Shown: in pieces, positions 33,985-39,138 of the stretch
How positions within the stretch are numbered: position 1 is the stretch's first letter
How the letters are laid out: the number at the start of each line of letters is the position of its first letter
DNA from: Escherichia coli
GTDB taxonomy: Bacteria > Pseudomonadota > Gammaproteobacteria > Enterobacterales > Enterobacteriaceae
NCBI RefSeq assembly: GCF_003334355.1
Contig: NZ_QOWP01000016.1
Length of the DNA stretch: 64,000 nt
Strand: one strand, 5' to 3'
Notes under the pieces: model-generated
The model's database searches: none
Told to the model about the DNA's origin: nothing
Seen by the model: the letters and a program-made list of their open reading frames with translations, nothing else
Translations under genes and position numbers: made by a program

Positions 33985-35346
<1,362 letters not shown>

Positions 35347-35485
35347 AACGTGAGGAAATACCTGGATTTTTCCTGGTTATTTTGCCGCAGGTCAGCGTAT
35401 CGTGAACATCTTTTCCAGTGTTCAGTAGGGTGCCTTGCACGGTAATTATGTCACTGGTTATTAACCAATTTTTCCTGGGGGATAA

Positions 35486-36625
35486 ATGAGCGCGGGAAGC
35501 CCAAAATTCACCGTTCGCCGCATTGCGGCTTTGTCACTGGTTTCGCTATGGCTGGCAGGCTGTTCTGACACTTCAAATCCACCGGCACCGGTCAGCTCCG
35601 TTAATGGCAATGCACCTGCAAATACCAATTCTGGTATGTTGATTACGCCGCCGCCGAAAATGGGGACGACATCTACAGCGCAGCAACCGCAAATTCAGCC
35701 GGTGCAGCAGCCACAAATTCAGGCTACTCAACAACCGCAAATCCAGCCAGTGCAGCCAGTAGCTCAGCAGCCGGTACAGATGGAAAACGGACGCATCGTC
35801 TATAACCGTCAGTATGGGAACATTCCGAAAGGCAGTTATAGCGGCAGTACCTATACCGTGAAAAAAGGCGACACACTTTTCTATATCGCCTGGATTACTG
35901 GCAACGATTTCCGTGACCTTGCTCAGCGCAACAATATTCAGGCACCATACGCGCTGAACGTTGGTCAGACTTTGCAGGTGGGTAATGCTTCCGGTACGCC
36001 AATCACTGGCGGAAATGCCATTACCCAGGCCGACGCAGCAGAGCAAGGAGTTGTGATCAAGCCTGCACAAAATTCCACCGTTGCTGTTGCGTCGCAACCG
36101 ACAATTACGTATTCTGAGTCTTCGGGTGAACAGAGTGCTAACAAAATGTTGCCGAACAACAAGCCAACTGCGACCACGGTCACAGCGCCTGTAACGGTAC
36201 CAACAGCAAGCACAACCGAGCCGACTGTCAGCAGTACATCAACCAGTACGCCTATCTCCACCTGGCGCTGGCCGACTGAGGGCAAAGTGATCGAAACCTT
36301 TGGCGCTTCTGAGGGGGGCAACAAGGGGATTGATATCGCAGGCAGCAAAGGACAGGCAATTATCGCGACCGCAGATGGCCGCGTTGTTTATGCTGGTAAC
36401 GCGCTGCGCGGCTACGGTAATCTGATTATCATCAAACATAATGATGATTACCTGAGTGCCTACGCCCATAACGACACAATGCTGGTCCGGGAACAACAAG
36501 AAGTTAAGGCGGGGCAAAAAATAGCGACCATGGGTAGCACCGGAACCAGTTCAACACGCTTGCATTTTGAAATTCGTTACAAGGGGAAATCCGTAAACCC
36601 GCTGCGTTATTTGCCGCAGCGATAA
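35486..36625 (+). CDS. nlpD: Murein hydrolase activator lipoprotein NlpD (LysM + M23 peptidase-like)
   Basis: 379 aa; lipobox LAGCS; Q/P-rich repeat region. Confidence 0.93.
35681..35752 (+). repeat. Three imperfect 24-bp tandem repeats inside nlpD, encoding QQPQIQ(P/A)(V/T)
   Basis: CAGCAACCGCAAATTCAGCCGGTG / CAGCAGCCACAAATTCAGGCTACT / CAACAACCGCAAATCCAGCCAGTG. Confidence 0.6.
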
Positions 36626-36687
36626 ATCGGCGGAACCAGGCTTTTGCTTGAATGTTCCGTCAAGGGATCACGGGTAGGAGCCACCTT

Positions 36688-37680
36688 ATGAGTCAGAATA
36701 CGCTGAAAGTTCATGATTTAAATGAAGATGCGGAATTTGATGAGAACGGAGTTGAGGTTTTTGACGAAAAGGCCTTAGTAGAAGAGGAACCCAGTGATAA
36801 CGATTTGGCCGAAGAGGAACTGTTATCGCAGGGAGCCACACAGCGTGTGTTGGACGCGACTCAGCTTTACCTTGGTGAGATTGGTTATTCACCACTGTTA
36901 ACGGCCGAAGAAGAAGTTTATTTTGCGCGTCGCGCACTGCGTGGAGATGTCGCCTCTCGCCGCCGGATGATCGAGAGTAACTTGCGTCTGGTGGTAAAAA
37001 TTGCCCGCCGTTATGGCAATCGTGGTCTGGCGTTGCTGGACCTTATCGAAGAGGGCAACCTGGGGCTGATCCGCGCGGTAGAGAAGTTTGACCCGGAACG
37101 TGGTTTCCGCTTCTCAACATACGCAACCTGGTGGATTCGCCAGACGATTGAACGGGCGATTATGAACCAAACCCGTACTATTCGTTTGCCGATTCACATC
37201 GTAAAGGAGCTGAACGTTTACCTGCGAACCGCACGTGAGTTGTCCCATAAGCTGGACCATGAACCAAGTGCGGAAGAGATCGCAGAGCAACTGGATAAGC
37301 CAGTTGATGACGTCAGCCGTATGCTTCGTCTTAACGAGCGCATTACCTCGGTAGACACCCCGCTGGGTGGTGATTCCGAAAAAGCGTTGCTGGACATCCT
37401 GGCCGATGAAAAAGAGAACGGTCCGGAAGATACCACGCAAGATGACGATATGAAGCAGAGCATCGTCAAATGGCTGTTCGAGCTGAACGCCAAACAGCGT
37501 GAAGTGCTGGCACGTCGATTCGGTTTGCTGGGGTACGAAGCGGCAACACTGGAAGATGTAGGTCGTGAAATTGGCCTCACCCGTGAACGTGTTCGCCAGA
37601 TTCAGGTTGAAGGCCTGCGCCGTTTGCGCGAAATCCTGCAAACGCAGGGGCTGAATATCGAAGCGCTGTTCCGCGAGTAA
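36688..37680 (+). CDS. rpoS: RNA polymerase sigma factor RpoS (sigma-38), apparently intact
   Basis: 330 aa from [24 protein letters not shown]; codon 33 at 36784-36786 is GAG (Glu). Confidence 0.95.
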
Positions 37681-37696
37681 GTAAGCATCTGTCAGA

Positions 37697-37730
37697 AAGG
37701 CCAGTCTCAAGCGAGGCTGGCCTTTTCTGT
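37697..37730 (+). terminator. rpoS intrinsic terminator
   Basis: AAGGCCAGTCTC pairs with GAGGCTGGCCTT (about 12 bp, one wobble), loop AAGC, tail TTCTGTG. Confidence 0.6.
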
Positions 37731-37736
37731 GCACAA

Positions 37737-37770
37737 TAAAAGGTCCGATGCCCATCGGACCTTTTTATTA
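37737..37770. terminator. Bidirectional intrinsic terminator between rpoS and ygbN
   Basis: AAAAAGGTCCGATG cc CATCGGACCTTTTTATT: 10-bp stem flanked by an A-tract and a T-tract. Confidence 0.6.
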
Positions 37771-37773
37771 AGG

Positions 37774-39138
37774 TCAAATTACCGCCCATACGCACCAGGT
37801 AATTAAGAATCCGGTAAAACCGAGAATGGTCGTTAACACTGTCCAGGTTTTCAGACCGTCTGCTACCGACAACCCCAGATATTTGGTCACAATCCAGAAC
37901 CCTGAGTCATTAATATGTGACGCACCAAGCCCACCAAAGCAGGCTGCCAGCGTCACCAATACGCACTGAATCGGATTCAATCCCATCACCGCTTCTGAGA
38001 GTAACCCGCCGGTTGTCAGTATTGCTACGGTTGCTGACCCCTGCGATGCACGCAGCGCCAGTGAAATAATAAATGCGGCTGGTAACAGAGGCAGGTCAAT
38101 CATTTGTAGCATGTTGGCAAGGGCTTTGCCGACGCCCGATTCCACCAGCACTTTGCCAAATACCCCTCCAGCACCAGTAACCAAAATCACTACCGCCGCA
38201 GTAGGAAGCGCTGAGCCCATAATGTCGCTGGTGTGTTGTAAGCTCCAGCCGCGACGTAAAGCCAATAACCAGAATGCCAGCACCAGCGCAATCATTAGAG
38301 CTACCATTGGTGAGCCGATCAGCTGTAGCGTACCAAGCAGGGGATGCGAAGGCGGCATCAGTGTTGCGGAAACCGTACCCGCCATGATAATCGCGATAGG
38401 AATAACAATTAGCGAGGTGACCAGCGCGACGCCCGGTGGATTTATTTTATCGCTTAATTTTGTCGCGCCTTCCTCACTGGCCGGAGCCAGTTGCATCTGT
38501 TCCAGTACTTCTACTGACATCGCATATTGGCGCTTATTGATTATTTTCGCTGCAAAGTAGCCAACAACCCCTACGGGAATAGAAATCGCAATACCGATGA
38601 TGGTTAGCCAGCCGATGTCTGCGTGGAGTAACCCCGCTGCGGCGACAGGGCCTGGATGCGGCGGTACCGCCACGTGAACAGTGAGCATGATCCCAGCGAC
38701 AGGCAGGCCAAATTTGAGTGGCGATATTTTGGCAACCTTGGCAAAACCGTAAATGATTGGCGCAAGAATAATAAAGCCGACATCAAAGAAGACGGGAATA
38801 CCGAGGAAGAACGCTGCCAGAGTCAGCGCAGCGATAGTTCGTTTGTCACCTAACTTGCGACTGAAATAATTAGCCAGTGACTCTGCACCACCAGAGTGTT
38901 CGATCATACGCCCCAGCATAGCGCCCAGACCAATAATAATAGTGACGGAACCAAGCACACCGCCCATCCCGGCGATCATCACTTTACCCACTTCGCCCGC
39001 CGGTATACCTGCCGCAAGTGCGACTAACAGGCTGACGAGGAGCAAAGCAACGAATGGTTGTACCTTTGCCTTGATGACCAGCAGCAACAGCATGATTACG
39101 CCAGCTAACGCAATGCATAACAATGTAATTGTGGACAT
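37774..39138 (-). CDS. ygbN: GntP-family acid-sugar permease
   Basis: 454-aa polytopic membrane ORF. Confidence 0.9.
   Translation of the reverse strand: MSTITLLCIALAGVIMLLLLVIKAKVQPFVALLLVSLLVALAAGIPAGEVGKVMIAGMGGVLGSVTIIIGLGAMLGRMIEHSGGAESLANYFSRKLGDKRTIAALTLAAFFLGIPVFFDVGFIILAPIIYGFAKVAKISPLKFGLPVAGIMLTVHVAVPPHPGPVAAAGLLHADIGWLTIIGIAISIPVGVVGYFAAKIINKRQYAMSVEVLEQMQLAPASEEGATKLSDKINPPGVALVTSLIVIPIAIIMAGTVSATLMPPSHPLLGTLQLIGSPMVALMIALVLAFWLLALRRGWSLQHTSDIMGSALPTAAVVILVTGAGGVFGKVLVESGVGKALANMLQMIDLPLLPAAFIISLALRASQGSATVAILTTGGLLSEAVMGLNPIQCVLVTLAACFGGLGASHINDSGFWIVTKYLGLSVADGLKTWTVLTTILGFTGFLITWCVWAVI

Follow-up and report, generated by a model that had tools for sequence, protein, structure and literature searches.

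The subject here is the Gln/Pro-rich octapeptide repeat of the cell-division lipoprotein NlpD, as it stands in a stretch of 64,000 nucleotides from Escherichia coli (assembly GCF_003334355.1, contig NZ_QOWP01000016.1), hereafter the window. An initial annotation of its letters had placed three imperfect 24-bp copies at positions 35681-35752, coding for QQPQIQ(P/A)(V/T) in the NlpD linker, and regarded them as prone to length variation between strains. The coordinates of the features discussed here are collected in the table.

The open reading frame 35486..36625 is identified as nlpD by the NCBIfam equivalog NF008123, which covers residues 4-379 with 679 bits where 311 is the cut-off, and the order pcm - nlpD - rpoS found among the window reading frames agrees with the annotated neighbours in E. 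coli genomes. The translation reads as a lipoprotein precursor in which an n-region containing K/R and a hydrophobic core precede a lipobox at residues 23-26, whose Cys26 is invariant among 36 Enterobacteriaceae homologues. Window DNA matches annotated nlpD in 5,422 of 5,426 complete E. coli genomes; the best full-length match among them is 99.9%, not 100%, and identity to K-12 strains is 99.6%. At positions 35190, 35280, 35307, 35614, 35671 and 35971 the window carries bases that differ from all other E. coli alleles compared (9 to 14 per site). In APEC37 (NZ_CP127303.1) the nlpD match has 1139 bases versus 1140, which suggests a 1-bp deletion, either a frameshift or a sequencing error. The adjacent rpoS gene (36688-37680) is intact and has Glu at codon 33; K-12 MG1655 has Gln at this codon, and some laboratory strains have an amber codon there. 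Together with the nlpD identity of 99.6%, this suggests that the window is not of K-12 origin.

The current RefSeq annotation starts nlpD at a TTG at 35531, 45 nt inside the ATG reading frame. This leaves only 10 residues before the lipobox Cys, with no basic n-region. With the ATG at 35486 as start, the product is the classical 379-aa NlpD, whose signal peptide is of ordinary lipoprotein type (K7, R11, R12), and a GGGGGA stretch that precedes this ATG could act as ribosome-binding site. From these sequence features the TTG start looks like a mis-call.

Features of the nlpD repeat region (window positions)
Feature	Position	Strand	Basis
nlpD CDS, 379 aa + stop; murein hydrolase (AmiC) activator lipoprotein	35486..36625	+	NF008123
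Signal peptide with lipobox L-A-G-C; Cys26 codon TGT at 35561-35563	35486..35563	+	translation
N-terminal linker, residues 27-122	35564..35851	+	bounds are the lipobox and the Pfam LysM start (residue 123)
Repeat unit 1, QQPQIQPV	35681..35704	+	sequence
11-nt exact repeat CAACCGCAAAT, copy 1, inside unit 1	35684..35694	+	longest exact repeat
8-nt CAGCCGGT, left copy	35696..35703	+	end microhomology of the 72-bp deletion of Z142-6
Repeat unit 2, QQPQIQAT; DNA most diverged of the three	35705..35728	+	unit comparison
Repeat unit 3, QQPQIQPV	35729..35752	+	sequence
11-nt exact repeat CAACCGCAAAT, copy 2, inside unit 3, 48 bp from copy 1	35732..35742	+	
9-bp tandem sub-repeat CAGCCAGTG CAGCCAGTA (QPV QPV); site of the +9/-9 bp alleles	35744..35761	+	
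Degenerate array tail, QPVAQQPVQ	35753..35779	+	sequence and species comparison
8-nt CAGCCGGT, right copy, 72 bp downstream of left copy	35768..35775	+	
LysM domain, residues 123-165	35852..35980	+	Pfam PF01476, E 4.2e-12
LytM / Peptidase_M23 domain, residues 279-372	36320..36601	+	Pfam PF01551, E 4.6e-33

The array consists of three head-to-tail, in-frame units spanning nlpD codons 66-89. Their DNA reads, in order, CAGCAACCGCAAATTCAGCCGGTG, CAGCAGCCACAAATTCAGGCTACT and CAACAACCGCAAATCCAGCCAGTG, and in the frame of the nlpD gene units 1 and 3 code the same octapeptide. Tandem Repeats Finder reports a single array at 35679-35748 with period 24, 2.9 copies, 71% matches and 0 indels, and 34 of 48 positions match at a lag of 24. 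Codon shuffling never attained this score, whether applied to the whole gene (2000 shuffles, highest 28) or to the Q/P-rich stretch alone (5000 shuffles, highest 32), showing that the 24-bp periodicity is real and not a by-product of composition. Sequence, repeat finder and shuffles bear out the three imperfect copies first described at this place; the peptide formula proposed for them is exact and the array lies, as had been indicated, in the linker between Cys26 and LysM. The units are not equally related. Units 1 and 3 are identical at 21 of 24 positions and their three differences are all synonymous, while unit 2 shares 17 of 24 positions with unit 1 and 15 with unit 3.

NlpD activates the amidase AmiC and its own LytM active site is degenerate, hence non-catalytic (PMC5533458). 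Its N-terminal linker is predicted to be disordered by DISOPRED, and a fusion carrying this linker alone has some weak affinity for midcell (PMC5533458). An AlphaFold model built from a 36-sequence alignment is poor (mean pLDDT 34.9, LysM itself only 52-62). It gives residues 27-119 a pLDDT of 25-30, with no secondary structure along residues 27-98 and two short strand marks near 99-103, and at this low confidence is not inconsistent with disorder. The second linker, between LysM and LytM (residues 166-278, approximately 35981-36319), is also of low complexity, rich in Thr, Ser, Pro and Val, but is not built of clean tandem units. Signs of an RNA or regulatory element within the octapeptide array are lacking: a search of 34000-38000 against Rfam returned nothing credible (two matches with E 0.37 and 0.92, both outside nlpD), and a scan of 35340-36700 found no sigma-70-like promoter and terminator-like sites only at chance level.

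The age of the array can be read from its relatives. A scan of species-representative genomes yielded 80 NlpD loci from Enterobacteriaceae. Escherichia sp. E1V33, E. whittamii and Escherichia sp. MOD1-EC7003 have three units that match those of E. coli copy by copy, including the codon signature of unit 2, and E. albertii has four, ending in PI, PA, SA and PV. Citrobacter, Salmonella, Enterobacter, Kosakonia and others carry a degenerate PQIQPV...QIQPV version, e.g. QQTPQIQPVQRPATQPTQVQPV; the Enterobacteriaceae isolate RIT693 has three octapeptides of its own and Kosakonia cowanii has runs of QPV. Most Enterobacteriaceae NlpD linkers contain the PQIQPV motif, with P68 and Q71 conserved at 90% or more. 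A pattern search located both the Cys and the LysM boundary in 73 of the 80 loci; between them lie 82-106 aa, with 91 the commonest length. Some E. coli strains (e.g. E400634) have QQPQIQSA as unit 2 (CAATCTGCA), the same peptide as in E. whittamii; judged from the sequences, it may be a long-standing polymorphism or have come in by introgression.

Variation inside the units is strongly structured. Across 19 units, drawn from six Escherichia alleles, differences in the QQPQIQ core are confined to third positions: all 6 of these are variable and the 12 first and second positions are constant, even though 45 of the 54 conceivable single changes to this core would be non-synonymous. Codons 7 and 8 of the unit are free to vary (P/A/S and V/T/A/I, respectively). 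On this comparative evidence, the sharing copy by copy between species together with the synonymous-only variation of the core shows that the array is old and that the core peptide is under purifying selection within Escherichia.

Conservation of QQPQIQ goes somewhat beyond the needs of a pure spacer, and the weak midcell affinity of the linker alone (PMC5533458) hints at a sequence-specific role, which also counts against a pure spacer. The units might be short linear binding motifs that provide weak septal affinity or dock a partner, their copy number tuning avidity. The exclusively synonymous variable sites of the 18-nt core, the recurrence of PQIQPV in most family members with its conserved P68 and Q71, and the localisation of the isolated linker are what such motifs would lead one to expect. 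The reading is nevertheless unlikely: copies 2 and 3 are degenerate outside Escherichia, the region is wholly absent from Yersinia NlpD (PMC2736372), the NlpD linker has no known partner, and successful lineages, among them the O157:H7 group of TW14359, continue to carry alleles with a single unit. Its more specific form, in which QQPQIQ units are selected docking motifs behind the septal affinity and the recurrent loss of two units, fixed in the O157:H7 group of TW14359, EC4115 and SS17, measurably alters amidase activation, the envelope or nlpD-rpoS read-through, derives entirely from the synonymous-only variation and the weak localisation reported in the literature, and is clearly less probable still.

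Counting units among strains needs queries suited to the purpose. A native 192-bp query sorted into bands of identity and coverage is blind to changes of whole units when the split BLAST pieces are rejoined: the lone unit of a one-unit allele aligns to units 1 and 3, so that 61 genomes with a deletion fall inside the class covered over at least 80%. With a query taken from the strain with a 72-bp deletion the true variants are likewise not ranked first, again after rejoining of split pieces; this search leaves a group of 61 genomes at 80-90% identity, and the equal counts, a match of numbers and not of genome lists, suggest that these are the carriers of the -48 bp allele. Alleles were therefore counted by megablast of synthetic alleles with 150-bp flanks on each side against the 5,426 complete E. 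coli genomes, using E-value cut-offs set so that only unbroken alignments pass and split ones are excluded.

Counted in this manner, a one-unit allele (-48 bp) is found in 61 genomes and a five-unit allele (+48 bp) in one, PapRG-04-4. Seven genomes have lost one QPV (-9 bp), four have gained one (+9 bp), and a single genome, Z142-6, has a -72 bp allele that also leaves one unit. Neither the two-unit (-24 bp) nor the four-unit (+24 bp) allele occurs in any of the 5,426. Length variants amount to 74 genomes or 1.4%, and three units are kept in about 98.6%, a figure subject to variant classes that had no designed query and that the native-query search bounds to at most a few tens of genomes. The one-unit and -72 bp alleles have linkers of 80 and 72 aa, just under the 82-106 range of the 73 loci. 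Exact matches of synthetic proteins were also looked up in a collection of 15 billion proteins, each in one protein background and with one start codon only. Under these terms the native NlpD is present on at least 1000 contigs, the one-unit protein on 160, the -72 form on 20 and the five-unit protein on 6; two- and four-unit proteins do exist, rarely, as PV-PV (25 contigs), AT-PV (1 contig, a Shigella flexneri record) and PV-PV-AT-PV (3 contigs).

An identical repeat number in all strains would have overturned the expectation of length variation; instead, one-unit, five-unit, -72 bp and ±9 bp alleles are all present in complete genomes. That expectation stands insofar as alleles of one to five units and of ±9 bp exist, but with only 1.4% of the genomes varying it overstates how prone the array is to change. 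The usual step, moreover, is 48 bp and not one 24-bp unit: changes of ±24 bp are missing from the 5,426 genomes, even if two- and four-unit proteins exist rarely elsewhere. None of the changes seen (9, 48 and 72 bp) disturbs the reading frame, and every allele examined has an annotated intact nlpD; NlpD therefore retains both domains.

The same counts bear on the idea of a fast-switching contingency locus, a VNTR that would generate adaptive or antigenic diversity in length. Alleles ranging from one to five units, the -72 bp form and the recurrence of the -48 bp change on several haplotypes would suit such a locus, and its units do lie head to tail (period 24, 2.9 copies, no indels). Near-identical units, frequent differences between strains and switching of expression are, however, not what is found here. 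The copy number is the same in 98.6% of the 5,426 genomes, the units are just 71% matched in DNA with a longest exact match of 11 nt, each of the three units has its orthologue in other Escherichia species, and a unit that is a multiple of three bases allows no on/off switching. A contingency function is accordingly very improbable.

The junctions indicate how the rare variants come about. In most one-unit alleles compared (ECCWS199, P276M, HS-01, 2013C-3342, TW14359, PK8566 and Z1322HEC0006) the surviving unit is a chimera that follows unit 1 at position 3 and unit 3 at positions 15 and 21, so that the crossover falls within the 11-nt exact repeat CAACCGCAAAT. In PEC145 the whole of unit 1 is intact instead, so that the crossover took place at the GTGCAGC shared by the unit ends. 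The middle unit of the five-unit allele in PapRG-04-4 is the reciprocal unit-3/unit-1 chimera, and both its copies of unit 2 have the same private GCC codon, showing that the duplication is recent. The 72-bp deletion of Z142-6 is bounded by CAGCCGGT at 35696 and 35768, and in the ±9 bp alleles the CAGCCAGTR doublet has gained or lost a copy. These junctions agree with misalignment between short direct repeats, and the variants would have arisen by replication slippage or unequal exchange.

Such junctions also speak to the suspicion that the variant alleles are artefacts of assembly or sequencing in a repetitive stretch. Assemblers sometimes collapse short tandem repeats, and the -72 and +48 bp variants are singletons among the complete genomes. 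Yet the array, at 72 bp, is short and has units that can be told apart, the -48 bp allele comes from 61 complete genomes of many laboratories, variant proteins occur on 160, 25, 20, 6 and 3 independent contigs, and each variant junction falls at an exact microhomology and in frame. An artefactual origin is scarcely credible.

The -48 bp alleles reside on at least five flanking SNP haplotypes, which also differ from one another at the adjoining 35680 and 35752, and the -48 bp allele of O157:H7 has the same flanking SNPs as the three-unit O157:H7 strain BB24-1. Because of these several backgrounds and shared flanks, the simplest reading of the sequences is that there were several independent -48 bp deletions; the haplotype diversity could in part reflect recombination that moved one deletion allele between backgrounds.

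Loss of 48 bp makes NlpD 16 aa shorter. By score and genome size about 28 of the genomes with this allele appear to form a single O157:H7 lineage, and 11 of the 28 bear the O157:H7 label; the O157:H7 carriers include TW14359, EC4115, SS17, SS52, JEONG-1266 and two Argentine strains; other O157:H7 strains, BB24-1 among them, retain three units. SS17 belongs to clade 8 and clusters with spinach-associated outbreak strains (PMC4321836). Since this carrier is placed there, the -48 bp allele may mark the SS17 clade 8 lineage. A literature search found no mention of a -48 bp nlpD allele, no link between an nlpD in-frame deletion and O157, and no paper that names nlpD along with at least three of clade 8, TW14359, EC4115 and SS17.

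Taken together, the repeat is probably the known Gln/Pro octapeptide array acting as a flexible tether, an old duplication with a selected core whose length changes rarely and at microhomologies. It is part of a linker of about 96 residues, predicted to be disordered, that would tether LysM and LytM to the lipid anchor in the outer membrane; the tether function is itself deduced from sequence, and the repeat would serve mainly as a spacer that tolerates changes of length. The comparison of species suggests that an older PQIQPV-type motif was duplicated in tandem within the Escherichia lineage to give the three units; purifying selection has since preserved the QQPQIQ peptide while synonymous sites drifted. 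Divergence of the DNA copies, above all of unit 2, leaves scant substrate for slippage, and the copy number is stable in approximately 98.6% of E. coli. What substrate is left would direct the changes: the 11-nt match of units 1 and 3, 48 bp apart, to recurrent -48 bp and rare reciprocal +48 bp events, the QPV 9-bp doublet to ±9 bp and the 8-nt CAGCCGGT pair to -72 bp. Divergence of unit 2 makes the effective period 48 bp, which would explain why one and five units outnumber two and four.

The overall significance is small, as the repeat is long described, its linker predicted disordered and the region absent from Yersinia NlpD. The array nevertheless provides an example of a repeat whose nominal period of 24 bp has become 48 bp in effect once the middle unit diverged, favouring 1, 3 and 5 units over 2 and 4. 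The natural alleles cover 72 linker residues (the -72 bp form) to 112 (five units). They are a ready test of tether length in an outer-membrane amidase activator, which bears on the 'reach' model (PMC5533458).

The Gln/Pro-rich octapeptide repeat is an ordinary feature of NlpD, known since 1994: the title of Ichikawa et al., as it appears in the reference list of PMC2736372, already has repeats in NlpD as its headline. The P/Q-rich repeat region is present in NlpD of E. coli and Salmonella and absent from that of all Yersinia (PMC2736372). A related change of length has been published for Salmonella Typhimurium UK-1, where the nlpD passages of PMC3391293 describe a strain-specific 12-bp in-frame deletion upstream of the internal rpoS promoter. 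Its authors consider an effect on the nlpD-internal rpoS promoter improbable, and in those passages the indel is treated apart from the VNTR section (PMC3391293). The reverse complement of the deleted string as given there, CGCCGCAACAAG, reads as coding for part of a Q-rich stretch. Like the E. coli alleles this is a strain-specific in-frame nlpD indel (PMC3391293); as described there, it differs from them in its species and in its 12 bp, which is no change of a whole unit.

With the VNTRs used in MLVA the NlpD array has in common in-frame units of a multiple of three bases and alleles of different copy number; unlike them, its variation is rare (1.4%) and its units are diverged. The FtsN linker and the TonB proline-rich spacer are Gln/Pro-rich flexible periplasmic linkers that run from a membrane anchor to a peptidoglycan-binding or functional domain. 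The NlpD linker would resemble them in its low-complexity Q/P-rich composition, and it differs from both by the clean octapeptide tandem repeat that it has in Escherichia.
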